A stretch of 64,000 nucleotides of DNA from an uncultured bacterium (GCA_964448115.1 CAYUVA010000013.1:8351-72350), one strand, 5' to 3'. Positions 1-54,741 are shown, counted from the stretch's first letter. Notes: generated by a model not told the origin, from the sequence alone. Program-made: numbers and translations.

Positions 1-215
1 AAGTCCAGTTCCAGGTTCTCCTCGAACTTGCGCTTCTGCTCTTGGTTGAGTATCTCGTATAGAAATTGCTTGCCATCATGCGCGGTCAGGGTTCGAAAGT
101 TTATGGGGAGAAGCTCGCCGTTATAGCGAATATAGGGAACCATCCCGGAGATGAAGTGCAGGTCCGATGCGCCCTGTTCATGGGCAAGCTCCAGGAATGC
201 GTCTATACGAGCCAT
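1..215 (-). CDS. pilT: PilT/PilU family ATPase, N-terminal part (runs off the window edge)
   Basis: Not in the ORF track. Manual translation gives MARIDAFLELAHEQGASDLHFISGMVPYIRYNGE...FEENLELD, the canonical PilT N-terminus. Its ATG overlaps the upstream TGA (TGATG). Confidence 0.9.
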   Translation of the reverse strand, partial: MARIDAFLELAHEQGASDLHFISGMVPYIRYNGELLPINFRTLTAHDGKQFLYEILNQEQKRKFEENLELD

Positions 216-3028
216 CAGCTTTCCCCCTCTCTTTGCGGGGGCTGTATCCTGATAGGAGCTTGATTTCTGGCTTGTTTTTGCTGATCGACCTCGAAGAGGT
301 TTTCTATCTCTGCCTTGTCGTAAGCTCTTGCATAAGCCTCATCCTTATCGATCTCACCGCGTTGGGCTAGTTGGTAAAGATGTTGATCCATGGTTATCAT
401 CCCCTCCTCGGCGCTAGCCATCATCACCGAGTAGATCTGGTGTATTTTACGCTCTCGGATAAGGTTGGCGATCGGTGGAGTGCCTAGGAGCACCTCGAAG
501 GCAGCGCGCCGACCGGAGCCATCTGCCCTGCGCACCAACTGCTGGGCGATCACCCCTTTCAGGTTCTCGGCGAGCATGATCCTTATCTGCCCCTGCTGTG
601 ATGGCGGAAAGGTGCTTATTATCCGATCAATAGCCTTGGCTGCGCTGAATGCGTGCAGCGTTCCCAAGACCAGGTGCCCGGTCTCGGCGGCGGTTACCGC
701 AATCTGGATGCTTTCGGCATCGCGAAGCTCACCAATGCAGATAACATCGGGATCTTCACGCAACGCCGAACGCAGCGCCCGTATGAACGATTGAGTATGC
801 ACACCCACCTCACGCTGGGTTACCTGACATCTTATGTTGCGATGGATGTACTCGATAGGCTCCTCGATGGAGATGATGTTCTTCCTCTGCGTCTTGTTTA
901 TATAGTCGATAAGAGAAGCGAGCGTGGTGGTCTTTCCCACCCCGGTGCTACCAACGCACAGAACCAACCCCCGATGAAGATTACATAACTCCTTGACCGT
1001 CAGCGGCACATCCAGTTGATCAATGGTGGGAGGGAAATCAGGGATGATACGAAATACAGCCGATAGACCCTCCTTCTTATGAAAGACATTGACCCTGAAG
1101 CGCCCTTTTTTCTCTATGATATAGGAAAAGTCTAGCTCTTGAAGCCGTTCCAAGGCAGCTATCTGATCCTCGTTGAGCACCTTGTAGAGGATCTGTTTCA
1201 TCCCATCAGGTGTCAAATCAAGGGGATAAAGATGCCTGACCTCTCCATGAACCTTTATATGCGGCTGCTCGCCGGCGAAAAGATAGACATCATTAGCGCC
1301 CTGCTTCTTGGCGGAGAGCAACAGCCCATCGAGCAGTGGAACCACCCTTTCCTCGGTAAGCTCCAGCCTTCCTATCTTAGCCTGTCCCCCCATGGTGAGC
1401 CGACTCCTCAGCTTCTTCAGGGCATTTGCTGCCTCGAAGCGAACCGCAACATCCGGGTCGTTCATCATCTTGGTGAGCGGTTCTATGACCCGATTGTCTC
1501 CCAGCCTCTCCAGCAGGCGAATCATGGAGATGCGCACCTCCTTGTGTCCCTTGTCGATGACCTCGAGCACTGCCTCGACCGCTGTCGGATCGCCAAGCTC
1601 ATTAAGTGCATCAACAGTAACCCCGCGCAGGGTATCGTCCTTTAGAAATGGTAAAAGATGCTCGGTTACACTCCTGTCATGCAGCTCGCCAAGGGCGGCA
1701 ATAGCGCGCTCCACAACCCACCAGTCCTCGTCTTTGAGCTTCTGTAGCAGGTATGGTTTTGCAGCCGGATCTTTGATCTTGGTCAGAACCTCGATGGCAA
1801 AACGGCGGATAAGTGCTAGCGGATGATCGAGCATCTTGATCATCGGCTCGGTGATATTGAACTCCTTCAGCTCTATAAGCGCCCTGGCGATGACCTCCCT
1901 TGTCCAGAAGTTCTCCTCTGCCAAGGAGAGGATGGTCTCATGGAGGATATTCTCGTTCCTTAGCACATCCATCATGTCCCGAAGCTTGCCTCTAACCGCC
2001 TGGTGGTCGGTTTTTAGCATATTAACGATGATCTTAGCCTGGTCGATCTTCCCTTCCTTTCCTAGGCTAGCCAGGGCGTCGAAGGCAGCGGTTTGTATGC
2101 TGGAATCCACATCCTTGAGGCGATTCACCAGTGGTTCAACCACCTTGTCAGTGCCTAGTTTTGCAAGGACATTTATGGTCTCGGCACGTATCCTTCGATC
2201 AGGATCCTCGAGCAAAAACAGCAGTCGCTCAACGAAGTCGCCCTCTTTGACCTTTGCCAGGCTGCGTATTGCCTGTATCTTTACCTGGAAGCTCCCCTGC
2301 TCGAATATCTCCAGTAGGGGATCGATTACCTCAGCAGTGCCCAGCTCACCCAGCGCCCATGCCAGCTTTATCTGCACATCGAGGACTGCATTTTTCGATT
2401 GTTCTTTGAATATCTGAATCATCTGGTTGGACTTATAGCTTGAGAGCAGCTCCACGGAGTACAGTTTCTCAGCCAGCGAACCAGATTTCAGGATCTCGAG
2501 TATTATCGGTATAGCCCGTTTATCGCCTATCTCTGCCAGGGCGAACATCCCGATCTTGCGCGAAGGCCAGCGATCATTGAGAAGAGAATCAGCTAGCATT
2601 CGAAAAAGCACATTCTGCCCGCGATCGATGATCACCTTAAAGGCGATCTTCTGGTAGATCTCGTTGCCGTTTCGCAGCGTATCGATCAGCTCAGTTGGAT
2701 AGGCATGAACCAGCTTCTCCCCTATGATATTGATGATGGTCTTGGTGCGATCCACCGCGATCATGCGCAGGATCATCTCGAAGTTACCCTTGACCATCTC
2801 CGATGGCGCACCGGCAATCACTTCACCGATGACCTGGAGTTTCTTTTTTACTTTGGCTTTATCCTTATCCTCAAGGGTCAGCGAGACCAGCTCGGTCAGG
2901 GTTTTTATCGGGATCTTGCCTCCCAGCGCCAGCAGCGACTGTACAACGATTTTCCTCTCATCGTCGCTGCTCCAGGCTGCGTTATGCAAGATACTTACTA
3001 ACTTGCTGGGATTTCTTATTAGTTCCAT
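215..3028 (-). CDS. HEAT-repeat protein fused to a C-terminal PilT-type ATPase
   Basis: About 560 aa of HEAT/PBS-like repeats (LLEDPDRRIRAETINVLAKL, LKDEDWWVVERAIAALGEL), then RFRVN, Walker A GSTGVGKTT, ALREDPD, GELRD, His box TGHLVLGTLH, NLIRE, GMITMDQ. Confidence 0.92.
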   Translation of the reverse strand: MELIRNPSKLVSILHNAAWSSDDERKIVVQSLLALGGKIPIKTLTELVSLTLEDKDKAKVKKKLQVIGEVIAGAPSEMVKGNFEMILRMIAVDRTKTIINIIGEKLVHAYPTELIDTLRNGNEIYQKIAFKVIIDRGQNVLFRMLADSLLNDRWPSRKIGMFALAEIGDKRAIPIILEILKSGSLAEKLYSVELLSSYKSNQMIQIFKEQSKNAVLDVQIKLAWALGELGTAEVIDPLLEIFEQGSFQVKIQAIRSLAKVKEGDFVERLLFLLEDPDRRIRAETINVLAKLGTDKVVEPLVNRLKDVDSSIQTAAFDALASLGKEGKIDQAKIIVNMLKTDHQAVRGKLRDMMDVLRNENILHETILSLAEENFWTREVIARALIELKEFNITEPMIKMLDHPLALIRRFAIEVLTKIKDPAAKPYLLQKLKDEDWWVVERAIAALGELHDRSVTEHLLPFLKDDTLRGVTVDALNELGDPTAVEAVLEVIDKGHKEVRISMIRLLERLGDNRVIEPLTKMMNDPDVAVRFEAANALKKLRSRLTMGGQAKIGRLELTEERVVPLLDGLLLSAKKQGANDVYLFAGEQPHIKVHGEVRHLYPLDLTPDGMKQILYKVLNEDQIAALERLQELDFSYIIEKKGRFRVNVFHKKEGLSAVFRIIPDFPPTIDQLDVPLTVKELCNLHRGLVLCVGSTGVGKTTTLASLIDYINKTQRKNIISIEEPIEYIHRNIRCQVTQREVGVHTQSFIRALRSALREDPDVICIGELRDAESIQIAVTAAETGHLVLGTLHAFSAAKAIDRIISTFPPSQQGQIRIMLAENLKGVIAQQLVRRADGSGRRAAFEVLLGTPPIANLIRERKIHQIYSVMMASAEEGMITMDQHLYQLAQRGEIDKDEAYARAYDKAEIENLFEVDQQKQARNQAPIRIQPPQREGES

Positions 3029-21201: not shown

Positions 21202-22214
21202 CATTCCTGCAGGTTATATGGTTTATACTTATAGGCGTTCTGCTGACCGGTTATGCGATCCTCGATGGCTTCGACCTCGGCGTCGGGATTTGGCATCTGT
21301 TCAGCAAGAAAGAAAAAGATCGTCAGCGGATGCTGGCAGCCATAGCCCCGGTCTGGGACGGCAACGAGGTTTGGCTTCTGACCGCTGGCGGAGCGCTATT
21401 CGCAGCCTTTCCGCATGTTTACGCCACCGCCTTCAGCAGCCTGTACCTGGCGCTGATGCTAGTGTTGATTGGGCTTATATTCCGCGCGGTAGCCATCGAG
21501 GTGCGCAGCAAGGATGAGAATCCGAGGTGGAAAAGCGCCTGGGACAAGGTCTTTGCCATCGCCAGCATGGTACCAGCTTTCCTATTCGGGGTGGCGATTG
21601 GCAATATGCTGCGCGGGATACCGCTTGATGAGAGGATGAACTTCACGGGGAGCTTTTTCTCGCTGCTCAATCCTTATGCGCTGCTTATTGGCTTGCTAGG
21701 CTTCATTGCCTTTGCTCATCACGGCGCGCTTTACCTGATCCTGAAGGTGGATGGAGAGCTTGGACAGCAGGCGATAAGGTGGGCAAAAAGCTCCTGGATA
21801 GCGCTTTTAGGCATGTATCTGCTAGTATCGGCTGTAACCTTGACCACGCAGGATGCCATTGTAAAGGCTGCTGCCGAGCGTGAGTTTATTGGCTTTTTCC
21901 CGGTGATCACATTGCTTGCGATGCTGGGCGTGCGCTATTATGTAAGGCGAGACGATTACAGCAAGGGCTTTATTGCATCGGCTCTGACCATTGCAGGCAT
22001 GATGGGCATAGTGGGAGTTACTCTATTTCCGAGGCTGGTGCCGGCATCGAACGATCCATCATTGAGTTTGACTATTTATAATGCCTCATCCTCGTGGATG
22101 ACCTTGCTGGTGATGCTTATTATGGTGATAATCGGCATGCCGATAGTGATAGGCTACACGCTCTGGGTTTACAATCAATTCAGCGGGAAGGTGGATGAGG
22201 AGGGGGGATATTGA
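21198..22214 (+). CDS. cydB: Cytochrome bd ubiquinol oxidase subunit II
   Basis: LDGFDLGVG, PVWDGNEVWL, LFAAFP; ATGA overlap with cydA. Confidence 0.97.
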   Translation: MTFLQVIWFILIGVLLTGYAILDGFDLGVGIWHLFSKKEKDRQRMLAAIAPVWDGNEVWLLTAGGALFAAFPHVYATAFSSLYLALMLVLIGLIFRAVAIEVRSKDENPRWKSAWDKVFAIASMVPAFLFGVAIGNMLRGIPLDERMNFTGSFFSLLNPYALLIGLLGFIAFAHHGALYLILKVDGELGQQAIRWAKSSWIALLGMYLLVSAVTLTTQDAIVKAAAEREFIGFFPVITLLAMLGVRYYVRRDDYSKGFIASALTIAGMMGIVGVTLFPRLVPASNDPSLSLTIYNASSSWMTLLVMLIMVIIGMPIVIGYTLWVYNQFSGKVDEEGGY

Positions 22215-22224
22215 AAAATGCAAT

Positions 22225-23087
22225 CTACTTTATTGTTAATTTAAATATGTCCTTGAAATCTTTATCTCTAATAGTTCTTATTGTGTCAAGATATTTTGAG
22301 AAATATACACCATTTATTTTTGTTTCTTGTGTTTGCTTTAGATGGTTTCCAGCAATTTGCACATAAGATTCATCTAATTCAATACCGATATACTTGCGGA
22401 GCCAAGTCGCTTTGCAGCTATCGCAGTCGTGCCAGTGCCCACAAATGGATCAAGGACAATATCTGATACATCTGTGCACATAAGAATCAACCTCTCTAGT
22501 AATGGCAATGGTAGCTGGCAGGGATGAGCGTCCCTGCGTTTCTTATGTCTTATTCGATGTATATCAGTCCAAACATCTGAGAGTAAAGGTCCGAAATCAT
22601 GGGCAAGATCCTTTTTCCCGCCATAATCCTTGAGAAACTCCTTGCAGAGTCTGCAACGCGGGTGAGGATATCTTATATCGTAAAACTTAAAATCCTTTAG
22701 TGATTTTGTGTAGTAGATTATTCCATAATGATTTGGTAATAACGTTTTTCCTAAGGGTGCACCACCTGAGTCCCATGATATCCAATGGCGAAAATAAGCT
22801 ATTTTATTCAAATACGCAGCATAGTAGATTAACCATCGTGGAATATTATGTACAAAAATCGACCCGGTAGGTTTTGTAATTCTGACCATCTCGTCAAGCC
22901 AATTATAACACCATTCCAAATACTCATCTTTTTCTTTTTTATCTAAGTAATTATTATATTTTTTCTTTAGATTAAAAGGAGGATCAGCAAAAGTCATATC
23001 AACAGAATCATCTGGTATTTCTTTCATAATATTCAAGCTATCACCTTGTATTATTTTATTTTCGTATTTTTTAATAATTTCATTCAT
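22225..23087 (-). pseudogene. N4/N6 DNA methyltransferase (beta class), frameshifted near the 3' end
   Basis: FADPPFN, HPCQLP, VLDPFVGTGTT. After AAKRLG, two extra nt (22399-22400) shift the expected RKYIGIELDESYV...IRDKDFK tail (stop 22225-22227) out of frame. Confidence 0.85.
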
Positions 23088-23092
23088 ACTAT

Positions 23093-23322
23093 TTATTCTA
23101 TTTCAAGTGATCTGATTAATTTTTTAAAGCGATTTATTTCTTCGTTATGAAATGCTCTTTCTTTAACCCATCATTAAAAATTTTATTTTTTAAGACCAAT
23201 AAAGTATCTTTTATTGAAGAGATATGCCCCTCATAGCTCTCTTCAAAATCAGGATCATAAAAATAAAAAGTATTTTTTTTGATTACTATGTTGTATTTTT
23301 CATCATCTGTTAGTTTCTTCAT
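23093..23322 (-). pseudogene. Type II restriction endonuclease remnant with a probable large internal deletion (DpnII-like)
   Basis: N-terminal MKKLTDDEKYNIVIKKNTFYFY...GLKKEH is joined out of frame to FHNEEINRFKKLIRSLEIE*, whose stop lies 5 nt before the MTase ATG. AT-rich. Confidence 0.6.
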
Positions 23323-23706
23323 GTGTATTACTTCGCCTTCCTGAAAAAAAGGATAATTTCTTCTTCCAAATCAATATGATAGCTCCATACTGTCATGAAA
23401 TACATCCACTAACATCGTTTATACAAATACTTGCTTTAATTACACTCTCTTCCAATGTCAATCCACGATTGCATATTTAATGCAATGAAGTTGATCTATA
23501 CTTTTCGATTTGAGCGCCGTCGAGTAATAATTGCTCCAAGTAACACCTGATGGCATTCTTTGCCATTTCCCCGGCTCCCTGTAGAACTCTTTCTTCAGTT
23601 ACAGGGTGCCACAGCCATTTATCGACCGGGGCATCATTGTAATGAATTACAAGATGATTGAATCACGCCTTGTCAATGGCTGGTGCATGGGCATATAATA
23701 AACTTG

Positions 23707-24318
23707 ATGCGCCAAGATAAATCAATACCGATCATCCTCGCCTCCACATCGCCACGCCGTAAAGCCATCCTTGAAAACCTCAAGATCCCCTTTCTGGTCA
23801 TGGCTCCTGGTTATGTGGAAGGCTGGCAGCCTACCGTCAATTCACCGAAGGATACGATAATAGAAGCCCTGGCAAAGGCGCATTCAGTTGCACAAAAAGT
23901 GCCTGGTACTTTTGTGATCGCTGCTGATACGGTTGTTTTTCATGGCAACAGACCTCTGGGGAAGCCCAAGGATCGCCAACAGGCGCAGGATTGGCTCAAG
24001 CTGCTCTCCGATAGTTGGCACCAGGTGGTAACCGCGGTTGCCCTGGTCAACATGAGGCTCGACTATAAAAAAGCACTGACCGCCACCACAGCGGTTCGCT
24101 TCAGAAAGCTCAGCGGTGAGCAGATCGACAGATACCTGGACACAGGGGAGTACCTCGACAAGGCAGGTGCCTATGGGATTCAAGGCATGGGAGGGCTTCT
24201 GGTCAGGGAGATCAGGGGCGATTACTTCAATGTGGTTGGCTTGCCACTTTACATTCTAGTGCGCCTATTCGAGGATGCCGGCATCGACTTACTAACGCTT
24301 GCCTACCCATCCCGTTAA
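23707..24318 (+). CDS. maf: Maf nucleoside triphosphate pyrophosphatase
   Basis: IILASTSPRR, AADTVV, GKPKD, DKAGAYGIQG, NVVGLP. Confidence 0.95.
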   Translation: MRQDKSIPIILASTSPRRKAILENLKIPFLVMAPGYVEGWQPTVNSPKDTIIEALAKAHSVAQKVPGTFVIAADTVVFHGNRPLGKPKDRQQAQDWLKLLSDSWHQVVTAVALVNMRLDYKKALTATTAVRFRKLSGEQIDRYLDTGEYLDKAGAYGIQGMGGLLVREIRGDYFNVVGLPLYILVRLFEDAGIDLLTLAYPSR

Positions 24319-27954: not shown

Positions 27955-27979
27955 GATTTATACCCCTATTTTAATAATA

Positions 27980-28053
27980 TGCGCCTGAGAGGACTCGAAC
28001 CTCCGGCACAGGGATTAGGAATCCCTTGCTCTATCCTACTGAGCTACAGGCGC
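27980..28053 (-). tRNA. tRNA-Arg(CCT)
   Basis: GCGCCTGTAGCTCAGTAGGATAGAGCAAGGGATTCCTAATCCCTGTGCCGGAGGTTCGAGTCCTCTCAGGCGCA folds into a cloverleaf with anticodon CCT; CCA is not encoded. Confidence 0.96.
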
Positions 28054-28165
28054 AGTAGCTAAACTTATAGATACTATATACTCTGATTGTTCAATTTTCA
28101 ACCCTTGACAGATGATGTATGAAACACCCCTCATTAAGCGGTAAAATACTTGGCTGTTATGGTAT

Positions 28166-48183: not shown

Positions 48184-48367
48184 TGGATTCCCGCCTGCGC
48201 GGGAATGACAGAAGGGGGTTGCGGGAATGGCAAGAAGGAGAGCTAGTGAAAAAAACAAGTAGGGGGTGCAGAATTCTCATTAGACCCTGTCTCACCCAAG
48301 CATATTAAATTAGGGATAGACCTTTGTGTCTGCCCATTGAAGGGCGAACATATTGGTTCACCCCTAC
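48184..48367. repeat. REP-like palindromes
   Basis: GGATTCCCGCCTGCGCGGGAATGAC hairpin and a degenerate GTAG-type REP doublet (TAGGGATAGACCTTTGTGTCTGCCC...GGGCGAACATATTGGTTCACCCCTAC). Confidence 0.75.
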
Positions 48368-48465: not shown

Positions 48466-48648
48466 ATGGGCTATCAATACATACCGCTTATCATTATAGG
48501 TTTAGTCGCATTGTTCTGGGGCTTCTGGGCGGCACACGAGGCGAAGAAGCCGCTCGATATCATTGGCGCCATAGCTGCTCCGGTAGGGCTAATAGTGGCA
48601 CTGTTGGGGGTACTGCTTCTTTGTGTCCCCGGATTCTTCTCAGGCTGA
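48466..48648 (+). CDS. Small two-TM membrane protein
   Basis: MGYQYIPLIIIGLVALFWG...LLLCVPGFFSG, with AAGGA upstream. Confidence 0.7.
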   Translation: MGYQYIPLIIIGLVALFWGFWAAHEAKKPLDIIGAIAAPVGLIVALLGVLLLCVPGFFSG

Positions 48649-48691
48649 AGCGCCATTGTTTTATTACGATACACCAGTCGCTGCTGAACGA

Positions 48692-49756
48692 TCACTCTGC
48701 CATTGAACTTTCCAGCATCCTGCTGAAAAAGACCCTGTCTTCAGCCACCGACTCGGCCTCTTCTCTGGTGATGAGTCCCCTTCTTACCAATGAAATAAGG
48801 GACTGATCCAGGGTCTGCATATTCGGCTGGGATTGCATTATCGAGGTAACCTGGATTATGTTGTTCTCCCTGATGCAGGTCATCACCGCATGGTTGACGA
48901 AGAGGAGTTCTACGGCGGCAATTCGACCTGCACCGTCAGCCCTGCGTAGCAGTTGTTGACTAACCACGCCCTTGAGTGAGATGGACAAAAGGATCCGTAC
49001 CTGTTGCTGTTCCTCTTCGGGGAAGACATCGATTAGTCTATCGATTGTCTTGGGTGCATTATTGGTATGCAGTGTTCCAAAGACCAGCATCCCGGCATCG
49101 ACAGCGGAGAGCGCTGACTTTATGGTCTCAAGGTCGCGTAACTCTCCGATAAGAAGCACATCGGTCGATTCCTTCTGGGCGAAATAGACCCCCTCGGCGA
49201 ATGAGCGAACATGGGTGCCGACCTCAAGCTGTGTAACCGTGCTAAGCTTGCCGTAGTGCACGTATTCAATTGGGTCTTCTATGGTCAGTATATGCTTTCG
49301 TTTGGTCTCATTGATCTCGTCTATTATGGTGGCTAAGGTTGTACTCTTGCCGCAACCAGTGGGTCCGGTGCATAAGATCAACCCCTTGTCCATCAGGGTG
49401 AACTTAAGCAGTTCTTCGGGCAGAGCGAGTTGCTGGATCTTGGGTATCTCCTTGGGTATTAGCCTGAAGACAGCGCATATACCTCGCCGCTGCATATATA
49501 CATTTACCCGGAATCGAGCCTTATCGCCAAGGCTATAGCCCAGGTCGAGATCCATCTTTTCCTCGAAGTGTTTCCTTTGTTTCTTATCCAGGATCTCGAA
49601 GATCATATCCTCCAGCTCGTAGTGGTGGAACGGTTTGATGCGCATCTGGTTTATCTCGCCATTTATACGAAATATTGGTGCTGAGCCGGAGTGCAAATGC
49701 AGATCTGATGCGCCGACACGAACCGCAAGCTCCAGTAAATCATCCAGTTTGTGCAC
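48692..49756 (-). CDS. pilT: PilT/PilU family ATPase (divergent)
   Basis: GASDLHL, RFRVN, GPTGCGKSTT, TIEDPIE, GELRD, TLHT; GTG start 3 nt after the upstream stop. Confidence 0.92.
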   Translation of the reverse strand: MHKLDDLLELAVRVGASDLHLHSGSAPIFRINGEINQMRIKPFHHYELEDMIFEILDKKQRKHFEEKMDLDLGYSLGDKARFRVNVYMQRRGICAVFRLIPKEIPKIQQLALPEELLKFTLMDKGLILCTGPTGCGKSTTLATIIDEINETKRKHILTIEDPIEYVHYGKLSTVTQLEVGTHVRSFAEGVYFAQKESTDVLLIGELRDLETIKSALSAVDAGMLVFGTLHTNNAPKTIDRLIDVFPEEEQQQVRILLSISLKGVVSQQLLRRADGAGRIAAVELLFVNHAVMTCIRENNIIQVTSIMQSQPNMQTLDQSLISLVRRGLITREEAESVAEDRVFFSRMLESSMAE

Positions 49757-49759
49757 CTA

Positions 49760-52543
49760 TCAATCCCTTTCTTGATCAACGAAAAGCTCGTCCAGCTCCT
49801 CATCCTTTAGGTATGACTCGAAGTCAGCCTTGGCGACCGAGCGCAGGTATGCCTCACCTCCGGATATGATCCCTTTTTTATACAGTTCGAGAAGCGCCTG
49901 ATCCATCGTCTGCATTCCAAGCTCGGTGCTGCTTTGGATAACCGAAGGGATCTGGTTTGCCTTATTGGAGCGTATAAGGTTAGCGATGGCAGGGGTTACC
50001 GACATCACCTCGCAGGCAGCGATCCTCCCCTTTCGATCCTTGCGCTTGACCAATTGCTGGCAGATCACACCTTTTATTAGATCCGAGAGTATGGTCCTTA
50101 TCTGTCGTTGTTGGGCTCCGGGATAGAAGTTGACCAGTCTTTCCACCGTATTGGCTGCATCTACTGTGCTCAGGGTTGCCAGCACCAAGTGCCCGGTCTC
50201 GGCGGCGGTTATTGCCCAATAAGCGGTCTCGAAGTCCTTGATCTCACCGACTAGTATGACATCGGGGTCTTCCCTGAGCGCAGCTCGCAAGGCTCCGGCA
50301 TAAGTGCTTGTATGCATACCGATCTGTCTTTGGCTTATAATAGATCTCCGATTGCGATGTATGATCTCGATAGGATTTTCCAGGATGATAATATTAGCCG
50401 ACCGCGTGGTGTTGATGATATCGACCATAGCCGCCAGTGTGGTGGTTTTCCCGCTGCGTCCGCTACCAGCGACTATTACCATACCCCTCGGTAATGAGGC
50501 AAAGCGTTTTATCAAGGGAGGTAATCCGAGTTCCTCCAGTGATGGGATACGATCCTGAAGCCTCCTGAAGGTCAAGCTGGTGCCATGCAGATGCCTTAAT
50601 CCGCTAATTAAATATCGCTCTCCCTTTCGGGATTCGTAAGCAAGCTCGATGAAATTGCGCTCCTTGAAGTTCGAAACCTGCTCTGGTGTAAGATTTTCCT
50701 CAAAAAATATATCCAAGAGCTTTCCACTGATGGTTGGACTTCCCATCTCGACCAGCTCCTCCTGGATGCGCATCTTGGGAACCTGCCCCTCAATGATGAA
50801 AACCTCGCTGGCGCCCTCCTTGTTAGCAGCGGTCAAGAGGCTGTCTATCCTTCCCATGCGCATTATAGTAGAGTCATGGGGATTGTTTTTATCATTAAGA
50901 AATTTCTCCGGGGTTATCTTTACTAGTATATCGAGGATCTCGGTCCTAAGCTCCTTATCTGGCGATTTGAGCGATGCCACCAGCGAAGGCGCAGCCTGCT
51001 CGGCGTGCTCCCACATCGCACCAATAGCCTTTACTATCTCCAGTTTCGTATGCCTTTTCTCGCTGATAAGGAATGTCTCCAGTAGCTTGACCGTCTCTGG
51101 CTCTCCGATCTGCCCCAGCGCCTTGGCAGCCACGCTTCTGAACTGCGGTTCATTTTTAAAAATATCCGAGAGCAACGCTATCGCATTACGATCTTTAAGC
51201 TTACCTAGCGCTTCTATTGCAAGCTCCCTGGTCAGCCAGTCGCCAGAATTGGCCAAGGGATACAACAGGTGTGAATATCGTTGACCATTAGCTGCCAGGA
51301 TAAGCTCGATGCCGTATCGTTTAAGGATCGCATCATTTTCGTTGAGCATCTTGGCAGCCACCTTGCTAAACTTATCCGGGGCGATATCGATGATGGTATG
51401 AATGAATCGATCGAGCGTAAGATAATCGAGCCTTCGGAAGTGCTCCAGCAACCTGTCCTCGAACATGGGGGCTTCAATCGCTTCCTGGAACTCGTTGGTG
51501 AGTTTTCTGATCTTCTCCGAGCTATTTGCCAGTATCTTGATGTACAAGCCGACAGGATCGATGCACTGCTTGAATAATAGGTTTCTGATCGAAGCCTTGA
51601 TGTCATTATGGAAGGTCTCATCATCCTCCCCCAGCTTGACCAGGAAATAAGGGATCACCGAGTCGTTGCCCACTACTCCCAGGGTTCTGATCGCCCGTTT
51701 TACAAGGTGTGGCTTGGGATCGTTCAGGTATCCGACCAGAAGCTCTACCGCGCCCGGTGCGCCCCAATATCCGAGCAGCTCCAGCGCTCTCTCTCTTATA
51801 TTCACCTCGCGGTCGTTGATGACTTTTTTTAGCAGGGCGAATCCCTCGGGCAGGGCGATCTTGCCCAGAGCCATCACTGCTGCATAGCGGACACTCCAGT
51901 TTTCATCATCCAGGGCTTTTCCGACTATATTTGCCGTGATGATGCTCTTGCTATGGGCAGCCAGGTTTACGGCGTGTATCTTCTCGTTTGTGTTGCCATT
52001 TTTTATGTGCGACTCAAGATAAGGCATCGTCTTTAGCACATCGAGCTTGAACATCACCTCGAGCATCAGCCTTTTTCCGCTCTCGTTTTGCTTCTCATAC
52101 TCGCGCAGTGCGTACTCAAAGATCTTTGGTGAGTTCATAAAGGCTAATAGCTTGCTAATCTCGGCAAGGTACTCTCCTTTGGTATGGAGTAGCAAGTTGA
52201 TCAGGCTCAAGCATAGGTTGCGAAGCCTTGCTCTGCTTAAGATTCTTTTTATCAGTTGGTACTCTGTGCGAGAGCCTTCGCGCACCTGTTTGGTTAATTC
52301 CTTGGCAGCATAGCTAGCATCTAGTTTACTCAGAAATAATCTTAATTCCTCGACTAGATCCTCCATGAATGCAGGCTCGGTATCTTGCAACTTTTGAGCT
52401 AGTATTGATATTAGCTTGGAAAAAGGTGGATCCGGGAACCTGAAGAATAGCTTCCTGAAGGCGAGTTTGCTTTCCTTTTCGCTCCAGTTTACCTCCAGGC
52501 AAGCTTTCTCAAACTGTTCATCCTTAGGGGTGCTTTTGAACAT
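49760..52543 (-). CDS. HEAT-repeat protein fused to a C-terminal PilT-type domain (second paralog)
   Basis: HEAT repeats (LDDENWSVRYAAVMALGKI), GSGRSGKTT, ALREDPD, AETGH, AIANLIR, GMQTMDQ. Confidence 0.92.
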   Translation of the reverse strand: MFKSTPKDEQFEKACLEVNWSEKESKLAFRKLFFRFPDPPFSKLISILAQKLQDTEPAFMEDLVEELRLFLSKLDASYAAKELTKQVREGSRTEYQLIKRILSRARLRNLCLSLINLLLHTKGEYLAEISKLLAFMNSPKIFEYALREYEKQNESGKRLMLEVMFKLDVLKTMPYLESHIKNGNTNEKIHAVNLAAHSKSIITANIVGKALDDENWSVRYAAVMALGKIALPEGFALLKKVINDREVNIRERALELLGYWGAPGAVELLVGYLNDPKPHLVKRAIRTLGVVGNDSVIPYFLVKLGEDDETFHNDIKASIRNLLFKQCIDPVGLYIKILANSSEKIRKLTNEFQEAIEAPMFEDRLLEHFRRLDYLTLDRFIHTIIDIAPDKFSKVAAKMLNENDAILKRYGIELILAANGQRYSHLLYPLANSGDWLTRELAIEALGKLKDRNAIALLSDIFKNEPQFRSVAAKALGQIGEPETVKLLETFLISEKRHTKLEIVKAIGAMWEHAEQAAPSLVASLKSPDKELRTEILDILVKITPEKFLNDKNNPHDSTIMRMGRIDSLLTAANKEGASEVFIIEGQVPKMRIQEELVEMGSPTISGKLLDIFFEENLTPEQVSNFKERNFIELAYESRKGERYLISGLRHLHGTSLTFRRLQDRIPSLEELGLPPLIKRFASLPRGMVIVAGSGRSGKTTTLAAMVDIINTTRSANIIILENPIEIIHRNRRSIISQRQIGMHTSTYAGALRAALREDPDVILVGEIKDFETAYWAITAAETGHLVLATLSTVDAANTVERLVNFYPGAQQRQIRTILSDLIKGVICQQLVKRKDRKGRIAACEVMSVTPAIANLIRSNKANQIPSVIQSSTELGMQTMDQALLELYKKGIISGGEAYLRSVAKADFESYLKDEELDELFVDQERD

Positions 52544-52635
52544 GCCCTCTTACTTAGCCAACTATTTTATATTAAATATAATTTCTCATCTCGTTTCAAT
52601 ATAACATTAACTCAGGACAATTTTCAAATATCATA

Positions 52636-52686
52636 AGGAGCAATCGATTTGCTCCTATTGACCATCGGAAGTGATAATGTTAAATA
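52636..52686 (+). promoter_or_regulatory. Inverted repeat next to a putative promoter
   Basis: AGGAGCAA-N5-TTGCTCCT immediately before TTGACC-17 bp-TAAATA, between divergent genes. Confidence 0.45.
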
Positions 52687-52719
52687 AGCGAAGATGTAAC
52701 TTAAATTGAGGATCTGTCT

Positions 52720-54741
52720 ATGATACCCAGCAATAAACGCTATGCTATTTTAACAATACTTCTTGTTGTTCTCTTGCCAGGCTCGATACCAGGTGTTCCG
52801 CTAAAAACCTGGCAGGAGCAACCGCTCAATATGCCCGGCGGTTGGCCGGATCTTTACCTTGATCCTAACGGAGACCTTCATGTCATTTGCGCAGATGGTT
52901 TCGGATGGCTTTATTATAAGAAGCTACTCCTCACCCAATGGGACGGAGAGGGCGCCATCCCCTTCGATGGTTCCATACCGGTTACACCGCCTAACGCCAA
53001 GTGCGATGTGATCTTCGGCTTGCCTCATATAGTGGCTGATTCAAAGGGAAATCCCCATATAGTCTGGGCTGCCTATGGCAGACCGCGGGTAGGTCCGGTC
53101 TATTATCAAACCCTGGTCGATGGGCAGTGGCTACCCGAGGCGGAGATCGTATCCCGTGGAGAAACTGACTGGATAGGCTTTCCAGAGATCGGAATAGACG
53201 CAAATGATCAGCTTTATGTGGTCGCCGAGCAGGTCTATGATAAAGACTATGATGGTTTCGGTTTTAATCAGATCATCTTCAAGTACAAGGACAAGGAAAG
53301 CGGCGATTGGTTACCGCCCGATGATAATCCCGGTGGCTTACAGATCACCAGGTTTTACTGGAATCCGCAGATCCCTGATATCGCAATCGATCCCATGGGA
53401 AACCTGCATGTCTGCTGGGAGCAACCATCCAATGAATATACAGAAATAGGTTATATATATTTCAATGGCTTTAGCTGGGACCCAATATCACTGATCGCCG
53501 ACTTTGACAAATGGTGCACAAGGTCGCGAATCCTTTGCGATGCTCATGGAGATCCTTATGTTGCTGCTACGGTGATGGAAAGACAGGGAGAGGATTATTG
53601 GTTCCTAAGCGGAATCGCTTACCTTGAGCGACATGATAACCAATGGGATGGAGTTATGTTCGGTAGAAATCACGGCAATACCAACGAGTTCCGAACCGGC
53701 TTTGCCATTAATGACAATGGTCTCTTGATCACCTGGCCTGACTATGGAGATGTGCAATACTGGTACAAGCGTTTCGATGAGCCTATCCATGAGAATATAG
53801 ATAGCTTCAGTCCATCCTCGAAACAGGCTTTCACCCTAAATAGCGTGGCAGCTGCCGGGGATGGGGAGGTCTTTTATGTGGTCTGGGAGGATAGTCGCGG
53901 GGGGTTATTTTACAATATGCTTTCCGAGATATCGACCTCTGCTCCCCGAATTATCGCTGGTGGTTATATGCAGACGCGCATCAAGTACGAAAGCGGCGGC
54001 GCCCTTGAGTTGGCTTGCATAGTTGATGACGATGTTGGACCTTATAACATCCAGTCGGTGGAGATATTATACGATGGCATCCCTACCGGCTTGATGCTTA
54101 CCGATAACACTCAATACGGCTTAGGCAAGGATTATCGCGATGGAATATGGCGATTCGAGATCCCGTTTATTCCCCCATGGACACCGTGGGGAGATTATCT
54201 TCTGGAGCTTCAGGCAACCAATCGCGATGGTCTAAAGAGCGAGATCTGGCCTTGGTGTCATATAGTCGCCGAGCAGAGTGCTCAACGGCAAGCCTTGAAT
54301 CTATGGGATCTGCCTGGAATAAAGACCTTGATGGAGTTCAACTGGGAGGCTGAGTTTCTTAGATCGGTCAATGGCGCGGCGGATCTTAACTCGACCTACG
54401 ATCGCTATGGACCTTTTGTGAGCCTGGCTGGCTACCTTACTGCAACCATTCCAGCAAGTGGTGGCGCTTTTTCGATGATCGCCGCCGCATCTGATGGAAA
54501 TGGCGCTGAAAACTTGTCAGGGGTTGAGCTTTGCTACGCGGGGAATACAACTGGAATATTCATGGAGGAGCTGCCGGTCGGCTTGGACTCGATGAGCAAG
54601 ATATATCGATTAGACTTGGAGTTAGGGCAAGCGCCAGCCGGCGATTACCTGCTCGAACTTATAGCATACGATGAAGATGGAAACCGAAGCCTCCTCTGGC
54701 CTTACCTGAACATCGCCTCAGAGGATACATTGGGATACTAA
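52720..54741 (+). CDS. Secreted beta-propeller-like protein with two repeated C-terminal domains
   Basis: Signal peptide; repeats PHIVADSKGNPHIVW / PDIAIDPMGNLHVCW; two ~100-aa domains ending in WPW and WPYL. Confidence 0.8.
   Translation: MIPSNKRYAILTILLVVLLPGSIPGVPLKTWQEQPLNMPGGWPDLYLDPNGDLHVICADGFGWLYYKKLLLTQWDGEGAIPFDGSIPVTPPNAKCDVIFGLPHIVADSKGNPHIVWAAYGRPRVGPVYYQTLVDGQWLPEAEIVSRGETDWIGFPEIGIDANDQLYVVAEQVYDKDYDGFGFNQIIFKYKDKESGDWLPPDDNPGGLQITRFYWNPQIPDIAIDPMGNLHVCWEQPSNEYTEIGYIYFNGFSWDPISLIADFDKWCTRSRILCDAHGDPYVAATVMERQGEDYWFLSGIAYLERHDNQWDGVMFGRNHGNTNEFRTGFAINDNGLLITWPDYGDVQYWYKRFDEPIHENIDSFSPSSKQAFTLNSVAAAGDGEVFYVVWEDSRGGLFYNMLSEISTSAPRIIAGGYMQTRIKYESGGALELACIVDDDVGPYNIQSVEILYDGIPTGLMLTDNTQYGLGKDYRDGIWRFEIPFIPPWTPWGDYLLELQATNRDGLKSEIWPWCHIVAEQSAQRQALNLWDLPGIKTLMEFNWEAEFLRSVNGAADLNSTYDRYGPFVSLAGYLTATIPASGGAFSMIAAASDGNGAENLSGVELCYAGNTTGIFMEELPVGLDSMSKIYRLDLELGQAPAGDYLLELIAYDEDGNRSLLWPYLNIASEDTLGY

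Follow-up and report, generated by a model that had tools for sequence, protein, structure and literature searches.

Do two adjacent PilT-family genes, one of them fused to a long arm of HEAT repeats, encode two different subunits of a single hexameric motor? This question is raised by a two-gene operon in a 64,000-nucleotide stretch of DNA from an uncultured bacterium (GCA_964448115.1, CAYUVA010000013.1:8351-72350). We refer to the whole stretch as the window and count positions from its first nucleotide. The upstream gene (A) encodes P0001, a fusion protein of 927 amino acids, and the downstream gene (B) encodes P0002, a short PilT-family protein of 354 amino acids. From their sequences and those of related pairs, our tentative answer is that A and B may share one hexameric ring of the PilT type, in the simplest case as alternating subunits (A-B-A-B-A-B); we give this a rough probability of 45%. 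The features that the argument needs, all on the minus strand, are as follows.

49760..52543, minus strand: gene A, encoding P0001, a HEAT/alpha-solenoid arm joined to a PilT-family ATPase whose ATP pocket is degenerate (open reading frame [ORF], Pfam, TIGR01420, AlphaFold2)
50897..52522, minus strand: all-alpha solenoid of A, residues 8–549, about 36 helices, predicted local distance difference test (pLDDT) mostly 85–95 (AlphaFold2, HEAT matches)
50861..50896, minus strand: flexible linker of A, residues 550–561, between the solenoid and the PilT N-terminal domain (pLDDT below 50 at 549–561)
49769..50860, minus strand: PilT-family domain of A, residues 562–925 (alignments to 3jvu and to paralogues)
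50168..50170, minus strand: TLST of A (TLHT in B) at the position of the gamma-phosphate histidine (translation and alignments)
49754..49762, minus strand: A/B junction, consisting of the TGA of A, 3 bases, and the GTG of B, with AGGGA 8–12 bases 5' of the GTG (sequence)
48692..49756, minus strand: gene B, encoding P0002 from a GTG start, a short PilT-family ATPase with its own pocket intact and an altered trans-acting face (ORF, TIGR01420, alignment to 3jvu)
49088..49099, minus strand: D220-A221-G222-M223 of B, in place of the ETGH loop (E219, T220, G221, and H222 of Pseudomonas aeruginosa PilT; alignments)

The two proteins and the composite ATP site

Both proteins belong to the PilT/PilU family: TIGR01420 matches residues 566–903 of P0001 with 369.1 bits and residues 3–340 of P0002 with 406.2 bits, above its cut-off of 319.1. 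P. aeruginosa PilT (3jvu) is the best solved relative of each (E = 2.2e-75 for residues 562–927 of P0001 and 3.8e-93 for P0002). The ATPase domains of A and B are 36% identical (119/335), and they align end to end with PilT (3jvu/3jvv, and 6ojx from Geobacter metallireducens), with the same N2 domain and RecA-like C-terminal domain. Pfam identifies T2SSE in both proteins and, in P0001, HEAT_2 (four stretches), HEAT, and HEAT_PBS as well, with repeats detectable from about residue 200 onwards. The AlphaFold2 model of P0001 (mean pLDDT 87.1) has a solenoid, a disordered linker, and a PilT fold; with a predicted template modeling score of 0.49, it does not define how the solenoid and the PilT domain sit relative to each other. 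The solenoid contains a conserved D-W-(W) motif at residues 435–437, whose D435 and W436 are the same in all of the 29 HEAT-PilT proteins compared.

Throughout, we use the numbering of P. aeruginosa (Pa) PilT. The corresponding residue is Pa + 563 in A, Pa + 1 in B, and Pa + 1 in G. metallireducens PilT. 

In PilT from G. metallireducens, the contacts between packing units are H230-T221, T221-T133, R195-D161, R195-T133, and D164-R81; only H230 and E164 are stated to touch ATP or magnesium (10.1101/672212). The H229A and E204A substitutions in P. aeruginosa PilT abolish twitching (10.1101/672212). In PilB, the neighbor's threonine is sandwiched between the first His-box histidine and the gamma-phosphate histidine of the nucleotide-bound chain and mediates inter-chain cooperativity, and two arginine fingers are completely conserved across the superfamily (PMC5424180). 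We infer that the first His-box histidine is on the same chain as this threonine, since one beta-strand carries both histidines, one at either end. The PilB fingers R271 and R286 would correspond to R82 and R97, as each pair is spaced by 15 residues. A PilT-like ATP site is composite: one chain gives Walker A, the Asp box, the catalytic glutamate, H229, and the arginine fingers of its own N-domain, and the next chain contributes R194 and the ETGH loop (T220 and H222).

The substitutions in A and B fall on opposite sides of this site. A keeps K136 (K699, in the Walker A sequence GSGRSGKTT), the magnesium-binding E163 (E726), the catalytic E204 (E767), E219, and all of the reaching face (R194, T220, and H222, which are R757, T783, and H785). 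It has changed at T132 (T132G, G695), D160 (D160N, N723), H229 (H229S, S792), R82 (R82L, L645), R206 (R206K, K769), and H19 (H19F, F582), and it also carries D17E and G32E. H229S and R82L leave A with neither a complete His box nor both arginine fingers. B keeps Walker A (GPTGCGKST, with K136), the magnesium-binding E163 (E164 of B), the catalytic E204 (E205 of B), H19, R80, R82, R97, T132, D160, and H229. It carries R176L, R194K, D196S, E219D, T220A, and H222M, the last of which makes its His box incomplete as well.

An earlier reading of the window, made from the sequence alone (the sequence-only reading), had described these losses as complementary motifs, and all 20 of its statements about them agree with the translations and alignments. 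In A, the motifs SQRQ, ALREDPD, AETGH, and AIANLIRS are kept, and the changed ones read SEVF, RIQE, RYLIS, ILENPIE, GEIKD, and TLST. In B, GASDLHL, RINGE, RFRVN, TIEDPIE, GELRD, and TLHT are kept, and the changed ones read TQLEV, AQKESTD, DAGM, and AVMTCIRE.

To count these changes, we used 11 functional positions that were fixed beforehand from the literature: eight in a protein's own pocket (cis) and three on its reaching face (trans; R194, T220, and H222). A is changed at 4/8 cis and 0/3 trans positions, and B at 0/8 cis and 3/3 trans positions. If changes were placed at random over the 11 positions, the chance of such a placement would be about 0.0013, a post hoc figure that is indicative only. 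Mapped onto the published PilT and PilB contacts, the substitutions fall on inter-chain contacts between pocket and trans face, and each lost contact pair (H229-T220, T132-T220, and D160-R194) is divided between A and B. As judged from these alignments, A is a protein that lost the cis half of its ATP site (T132, D160, H229, and R82) and kept its reaching face, and B is one that lost the trans half serving its neighbor's site (R194, T220, and H222) and kept its own pocket. The proposal that the fusion is a weakened subunit and its partner the catalytic one is therefore supported at the level of residues, with four pocket residues missing from P0001 and 8/8 present in P0002.

The sequence-only reading had also suggested that the altered C-face of the partner fits the altered N-face of the fusion. 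The complementarity stands, but the strongest match is instead between the ATP pocket of A and the ETGH/ALRED face of B. The N-face change is not an argument for it: H19 is also changed in PilU-like proteins, so its loss in A argues nothing. We had considered a covariation of H19 with H222 and dropped it, since H19 is lost in PilU-like proteins and is kept in a second class of HEAT-PilT fusions and in the A proteins of Gammaproteobacteria (both described below).

The substitutions are not assembly errors, because contigs assembled independently from three sequencing runs of one sample are identical to positions 48500–52800 of the window. A Logan contig of run X1 corresponds to positions 48954–50561 with no differences and bridges the A/B junction. 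The sample is probably the one from which the genome itself came, so these contigs add no independent biological support.

A/B pairs across bacteria

We define an A/B tandem (a term coined here) as an upstream protein A that keeps R194, T220, and H222 and a downstream protein B without H222, both in the same superclade of the PilT family. A tree of 177 PilT-family sequences places every A protein, whether fused or unfused, and every B protein in a single superclade (support 0.997) that has an A side and a B side, and PilU-like proteins outside it. P0001 is in the A clade and P0002 is at the base of the B clade of its own genome (0.958), so that the window pair is itself an A/B tandem.

Loci came from a scan of species-representative genomes and of Acidobacteriota genomes, in which we read the DNA around HEAT-PilT genes and other PilT tandems. 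The species-representative scan gave mostly ordinary pilT/pilU loci and yielded three fused loci (L010, L080, and L109) and eight with an upstream HEAT-kinase gene. The test set contains 39 A-B tandems (from the window's own genome, genome G022, Acidobacteriota, Gammaproteobacteria, Verrucomicrobiota, Desulfomonile, and other metagenome-assembled genomes [MAGs]), and the control set contains 29 PilT-PilU pairs. We dropped L010, L135, and L136 as duplicates of L134, L072, and L062, respectively; ORFs with a PilT match of 300 residues or fewer (such as the truncated B of L060 and the truncated A of L094); L124 (A only, with no B ORF in the stretch); and L109 (at a contig end). Genome G069 was left out. 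L104, L121, L122, and L130, in which ORF calling had extended the B frame upstream, were added by hand, and L072 was added though its B keeps H222. Changes at the 11 positions were as follows.

A proteins (39): cis 44/312 (T132 25, H229 11, D160 4, E204 3, R82 1); trans 0/117
B proteins (39): cis 10/312 (nine of them D160E); trans 58/117 (H222 38, by definition; T220 19; R194 1, in the window pair)
PilT controls (29): cis 0/232; trans 0/87
PilU controls (29): cis 2/232; trans 0/87

If the B-defining H222 is set aside, trans positions are changed in 20/78 cases in B versus 0/78 in A. A PilT-family gene lies immediately 5' of 38 of the 41 ORFs that lack H222; in one further case the gene in that place is truncated, and the other two ORFs have no such neighbor. 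A and B genes also lie close together: the gap between them has a median of 6 nt (25/34 are at most 15 nt), versus 28 nt for PilT-PilU pairs (9/29), although these gaps are approximate because start codons were assigned by rule.

The control pairs bear on one alternative, namely that A and B form two rings in series as PilT and PilU do, with an ATPase-impaired A6 ring as a docking or adaptor ring that recruits an active B6 ring. PilT-PilU resembles A/B in being a tandem of two PilT-family paralogues, and adjacent co-transcribed paralogues fit rings in series equally well. One member of the PilT-PilU pair needs the other, and PilT can act as an adaptor even when its ATPase is dead (10.1101/634048, 10.1101/2025.10.30.685630); AlphaFold3 modeling and genetics place PilT between PilC and PilU (10.1101/2025.10.30.685630). 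But a B6 ring would be without the trans T220/H222 relay at all six of its sites, and the 29 PilU-like controls never lose it. PilU-like proteins also differ from B in their H19 (N, Y, or F), in D196A, in the loss of the arginine of AIRNLIRE, in their greater length, and in their clade. P0002 keeps H19 and that arginine (as CIRE), has D196S, and lies outside the PilU-like clades; the arginine is kept in 29/39 A and 39/39 B proteins and in 0/29 PilU-like ones. At 354 amino acids, B lacks the C-terminal extension of PilU-like ORFs (about 375–391 amino acids), and in Vibrio cholerae it is the C-terminus of PilU that contacts PilT (10.1101/2025.10.30.685630). Rings in series would also leave the joint rise of pocket losses in A and trans-face losses in B (below) unexplained, and we consider this arrangement unlikely, if still the strongest of the competing explanations. 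As a side observation, the combination of H19 N/Y/F and D196A with the ATP site and trans face kept (for example, in L039, L059, L098, and L118) may separate PilU from PilT.

The same split emerges when no position is chosen in advance, in a scan of every column with at least 93% invariance in the PilT controls (110 columns). Relaxation confined to A affects N84, P100, L109, T129, T132, S134, H154, T157, L201, H229, T230, G276, R277, and R295, which group around Walker A, the Asp box, Walker B, and the end of the His box. Relaxation confined to B affects T182, L193, P197, I200, T220, and H222. Across pairs, pocket losses in A rise with trans-face losses in B (Spearman 0.72, compared with 0.29 for all remaining columns), where the column sets were partly chosen post hoc and related genomes inflate the significance. 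The window pair is at the extreme, as A has lost 8/17 pocket columns and B 8/8 trans columns. Overall, the complementary loss is real, and the pairs, the columns, and the tree back a mixed ring.

A tree of concatenated pairs groups the window pair with the pair from G022 (L134; support 0.91) and indicates that A has lost H229 about four separate times. In a subclade of eight Acidobacteriota pairs, T220 of B is lysine or arginine in all eight, on the same branch as the loss of H229 from A; the sister pair keeps the histidine and the threonine. Overall, A lacks H229 in 8/14 Acidobacteriota pairs. The window pair shows T220A in B alongside the loss of H229 from A, and its sister L134 keeps both residues. 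Desulfomonile has T220L, and the related gammaproteobacterial B proteins already have methionine. The exception to coincident change is a Xenobia MAG, in which A has lost H229 and B is unchanged. Beside this pattern, we note that in the Acidobacteriota loci L080, L119–L123, L125, and L126, H229 of A has become N, S, or D with Lys/Arg at the trans threonine of the partner in 8/8, and that three of these A proteins have aspartate as the catalytic glutamate. The Lys/Arg of B might reach the neighbor's phosphate as a trans finger.

How widespread are such pairs? Among 5.8 billion proteins, we found many HEAT-PilT fusions and no close orthologue of A; the best full-length matches are only 27–32% identical. 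The fusions are named only as PilT/PilU family, with labels that include Myxococcota, Deltaproteobacteria, Thermoanaerobaculia, and Acidobacteria, and ESM Atlas has clusters of 51–131 members with the same HEAT_2 and T2SSE architecture. One class (class I, about 900–975 amino acids) has lost H19 and includes P0001. A second class (class II, about 825–860 amino acids) keeps H19 and has mostly lost H229 to S or N. Compared with the uncharacterized fusions of Myxococcota and Acidobacteriota, which have the same architecture and 820–975 amino acids, P0001 joins the N-face of class I (H19F) with the loss of H229, and in the tables that we compiled it alone lacks R82 and it alone has D160N (elsewhere only D160E occurs). 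Sixteen genomes in our sample, G069 included, have a long HEAT-PilT gene; nothing else stated here depends on G069 or G197. Where we read the DNA, a short PilT gene without H222 lies directly downstream of the fusion. Among 40 other genomes searched, such pairs were found in G022 only; all 40 are related to the window's genome at no closer than the domain level, and the species set searched contains no close representative of its lineage.

The arrangement also occurs without fusion. Unfused A-B tandems are found in Verrucomicrobiota (Akkermansia, Prosthecobacter), a Bacillota MAG, Desulfomonile, Methylomirabilota, and others, with H222 of B replaced by L, I, S, or V. Eight gammaproteobacterial loci have a gene for a protein with HEAT repeats and a Ser/Thr kinase, followed by a canonical PilT (A) and a 353-residue PilT with H222I and mostly T220M (B). 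The HEAT-kinase protein (about 800 amino acids, five HEAT_2 stretches, and a C-terminal kinase) is found in L055, L060, L064, L066, L067, L070, L073, and L104, for example in Steroidobacteraceae. HEAT repeats are thus tied to A/B pairs even when they are not fused to them, as in these gammaproteobacterial loci, where they stand alongside a kinase. In the literature that we searched, nothing on HEAT-PilT fusions turned up. Myxococcus xanthus has adjacent PilT paralogues, MXAN_6705 and MXAN_6706, one of which has a long N-terminus (PMC13584747), and these may be a candidate A/B pair.

The genome that contains the window (3.98 Mb in 86 contigs, 94% complete) has an unusually large set of PilT-family genes, with 14 matches to TIGR01420 above the cut-off in 4 Mb. 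Five of these genes encode HEAT-PilT proteins of about 920 amino acids, and four of the five are directly followed by a short PilT gene: two on the window's contig (C13), one on C44, and one on C33. The second HEAT-PilT gene of the window (215-3028, minus strand), which the sequence-only reading had overlooked, encodes 937 amino acids with HEAT_2 in seven stretches and T2SSE. Its stop codon overlaps the start of a gene for a 365-residue short PilT with H222I (G000:C13:7468-8565), which is cut by the start of the window, and the pocket of A in this pair is intact. The C33 locus (G000:C33:36939-41867, L005/L006) is a triple, with a HEAT-PilT of 919 amino acids, an A-like short PilT of 364 amino acids, and a short PilT with H222A. 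The 364-residue protein keeps both histidines and is the closest relative of the ATPase domain of P0001 (support 0.916). A long gene on C64 and a short one on C10 have no such partner, and C8 has a canonical pilB-pilT pair. All five long proteins keep H222 and carry F, Y, or I in place of H19; among the short partners, 5/6 have H222 replaced (by M, V, I, A, or I) and S or A at D196.

With five HEAT-PilT genes in this genome alone and a widespread family of A/B pairs, the window pair is not a singular oddity; it is the most degenerate member of that family. Because its nearest relative has an intact A pocket, the extreme degeneration is lineage-specific. This raises a second alternative: a redundant pair of paralogues may be drifting under relaxed selection, with A a pseudo-ATPase or a regulator, possibly en route to loss, and the complementarity would have no meaning for assembly. 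The genome's five long and six short paralogues are consistent with redundancy, as are the distance of A from any protein found, the intact pocket in L134, and the window pair's TIGR01420 scores, which are the lowest among these paralogues (372 and 406 bits, versus 430–456 for the others). A is also the most changed of all 39 A proteins at the other PilT-invariant columns (25/85). However, both ORFs are intact and identical in the three runs, A is predicted to fold, and the Walker A lysine, magnesium-binding glutamate, and catalytic glutamate are kept in both proteins. The losses are also placed non-randomly, with none at the trans positions of A or the pocket positions of B, and the same A/B asymmetry, including the loss of H229 from A, recurs in Acidobacteriota, Desulfomonile, and the Xenobia MAG. 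We therefore view pure drift as improbable, and clearly more so than rings in series.

A possible mixed ring and the evidence against it

If A and B share a ring, the operon would supply two different subunits of one hexameric ATPase. Three sites would be made of a B pocket and an A face, and these would be normal catalytic sites, because the pocket of B and the reaching face of A are canonical. The three sites made of an A pocket and a B face would be degenerate on both sides, with little or no hydrolysis; they would probably still bind nucleotide, because the Walker A lysine, magnesium-binding glutamate, and catalytic glutamate are kept. An alternating ring is the simplest arrangement because the relaxed positions all fall on one type of interface while the other is canonical. 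Such a ring would be restricted to three-fold forms, for example the alternating open/closed form that is among the PilT conformations observed by McCallum et al. (10.1101/672212). Three solenoids of about 550 residues would extend from each ring on flexible linkers, presumably as docking or regulatory arms. We infer the shared ring, its 3:3 alternation, the sites that fire, and the role of the HEAT repeats from these patterns of kept and lost residues.

In the alpha3beta3 ring of F1-ATPase, catalytic and non-catalytic paralogues alternate, and the composite sites at their interfaces are three active and three degenerate ones. The same logic is proposed for the A/B ring, but F1-ATPase is from an unrelated branch of the P-loop ATPases. 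To our knowledge, an alternating ring of catalytic and non-catalytic subunits has been shown for no type IV filament ATPase. Our literature search found no demonstration of a heterohexameric PilT-like ATPase, and heterohexamers of type IV filament ATPases are only hypothesized in PMC6711533. PilT itself is a homohexamer. Compared with it, both A and B have an incomplete His box. H229, R82, D160, and T132 are missing from A, which bears the solenoid, and H222, R194, and T220 are missing from B; there are no pilus genes nearby.

Several observations weigh against the alternating A/B ring. The sole tested precedent, PilT/PilU, forms separate homohexamers (10.1101/634048) and has been modeled as stacked rings (10.1101/2025.10.30.685630). 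A rotary cycle with two-fold symmetry is favored for PilT and PilB (10.1101/672212). An ABABAB ring has no two-fold symmetry, because its opposite subunits differ, and a different cycle must therefore be assumed for it. In nine gammaproteobacterial pairs (the eight linked to a HEAT-kinase gene and L069), A is canonical at all 11 positions, and for this reason its A6 ring could be an ordinary PilT. Genes without H222 also occur with no adjacent A (C10 of the window's genome and L021), as does a HEAT-PilT gene with no adjacent B (C64). The intact pocket of L134, together with the window pair's family scores, the lowest among the genome's five, leaves room for relaxed selection on a redundant copy as a partial explanation. 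The absence of H222 is itself the criterion that defines B, and related genomes do not contribute independent pairs.

A two-chain structure prediction for the PilT domain of A with B speaks weakly for their contact. It gave an interaction prediction score from aligned errors (ipSAE) of 0.33 (the median of 0.38, 0.00, and 0.33), compared with 0.01 for the best control; this is a mark reached by 58/80 solved complexes and 2/110 mismatched pairs, with a score of at most 0.60 in only 7/80. The partners were predicted with pLDDT of at least 83, and the agreement of contacts between runs was 0%. Our own alignments were the input, and the model may have memorized the solved PilT hexamers. We regard this predicted complex as weak; likeness to PilT might by itself let a pair pass.

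The symmetry problem would be eased if the ring were mixed in some other order or ratio, such as A2B4 or A4B2 (for which a two-fold form is possible), or if it included subunits of the other paralogous pairs. Alternation at 3:3 is incompatible with the two-fold cycle described for PilT and PilB, the C33 triple could yield a two-fold ring, A-A'-B-A-A'-B, built from three kinds of subunit, and one A (C64) and one B (C10) in this genome are unlinked. On the other hand, the tight 1:1 coupling of the genes suggests equal amounts of the two proteins, and exactly two types of interface arise from strict alternation only. These arrangements seem to us the least probable of the explanations considered. 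The alternating ring remains our preferred reading of the window pair. Its extension to A/B pairs in general is more doubtful than the ring itself, though we hold it somewhat likelier than any of the alternatives: such pairs might be obligate three-fold heterohexamers whose catalytic sites alternate with regulatory, non-hydrolyzing sites and whose cycle is not two-fold, with HEAT arms that may link the motor to something besides a classical pilus platform.

The operon's surroundings and what a mixed motor would mean

Given the 3-base junction and the AGGGA upstream of the GTG, translation of A and B is likely coupled. Two further features flank the operon.

52598..52627, minus strand: promoter-like site, TTGAAA, an 18-nt spacer, and TATATT, with TG; 10/12 matches (consensus match only)
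48187..48206, minus strand: terminator-like hairpin downstream of B, before a gene of the butyrate/acetate-kinase family (consensus match only)

The promoter-like site sits in the 176-bp divergent intergenic region upstream of A. Five terminator-like sites were found versus 4.5 expected. The neighboring genes encode the butyrate/acetate-kinase-family protein, a DUF6754 protein, a YfhO-like membrane protein, and a protein of 673 amino acids, and they give no functional clue. The gene for the last of these (window 52720-54741, plus strand) is divergent from the operon and has no Pfam or PADLOC match. The only relative that we found (about 35% identity) is a protein of 2143 amino acids encoded by the divergent neighbor of the C33 HEAT-PilT locus. 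The ORF of about 670 amino acids downstream of the gammaproteobacterial pairs is methionyl-tRNA synthetase and is unrelated, and the 673-residue protein matches none of those ORFs. A link to anti-phage defense was rejected: the only PADLOC matches were unspecific ones to repeats and P-loops (HEAT-ARM_XIII, 8.2e-15 across some 80 residues; mad8, 2.3e-08). Elsewhere in the window, GC content falls to 0.38 at 22001-24000, versus about 0.49 in the rest, with short ORFs only (237 amino acids on the minus strand and 211 on the plus strand), and a lone tRNA-Arg (CCT) lies at 27979-28054 (minus strand).

What would the motor act on? The sequence-only reading had noted that the window has no pilB, pilC, or pilin gene. 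Profile searches agree: apart from the PilT genes, contig C13 has no PilB-like, T2SSF, secretin, or N_methyl pilin match. The pair thus has no genetic link to a type IV pilus machine (pilB, pilC, or pilins) on this contig, and a link in trans is possible. Other contigs encode about five PilC/GspF platform proteins, five PilB-like ATPases, and six secretins, with 15 pilin-signal matches. Because pilus and secretion machines are encoded elsewhere in the genome, a pilus-type substrate is the default guess.

Mixed rings of type IV filament ATPases have been considered as a possibility, in the case of PilT/PilU and in that of extension versus retraction motors (PMC6711533); as regards PilT/PilU, the evidence to date is negative (10.1101/634048). 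The A/B pairs are a natural test case: their paralogues have divided the two halves of the composite ATP site, so that neither homohexamer would be fully canonical. HEAT-repeat arms emerge as a recurrent and unexplained attachment to PilT-type motors. If the alternating ring is correct, then duplication and complementary decay would have locked two paralogues into one motor, and the ring would be fixed in a three-fold form, one of several conformations seen for PilT. It would also define a large family, comprising hundreds of public proteins whose present annotation is simply PilT, and the type IV filament ATPase superfamily would gain its first heteromeric motor.

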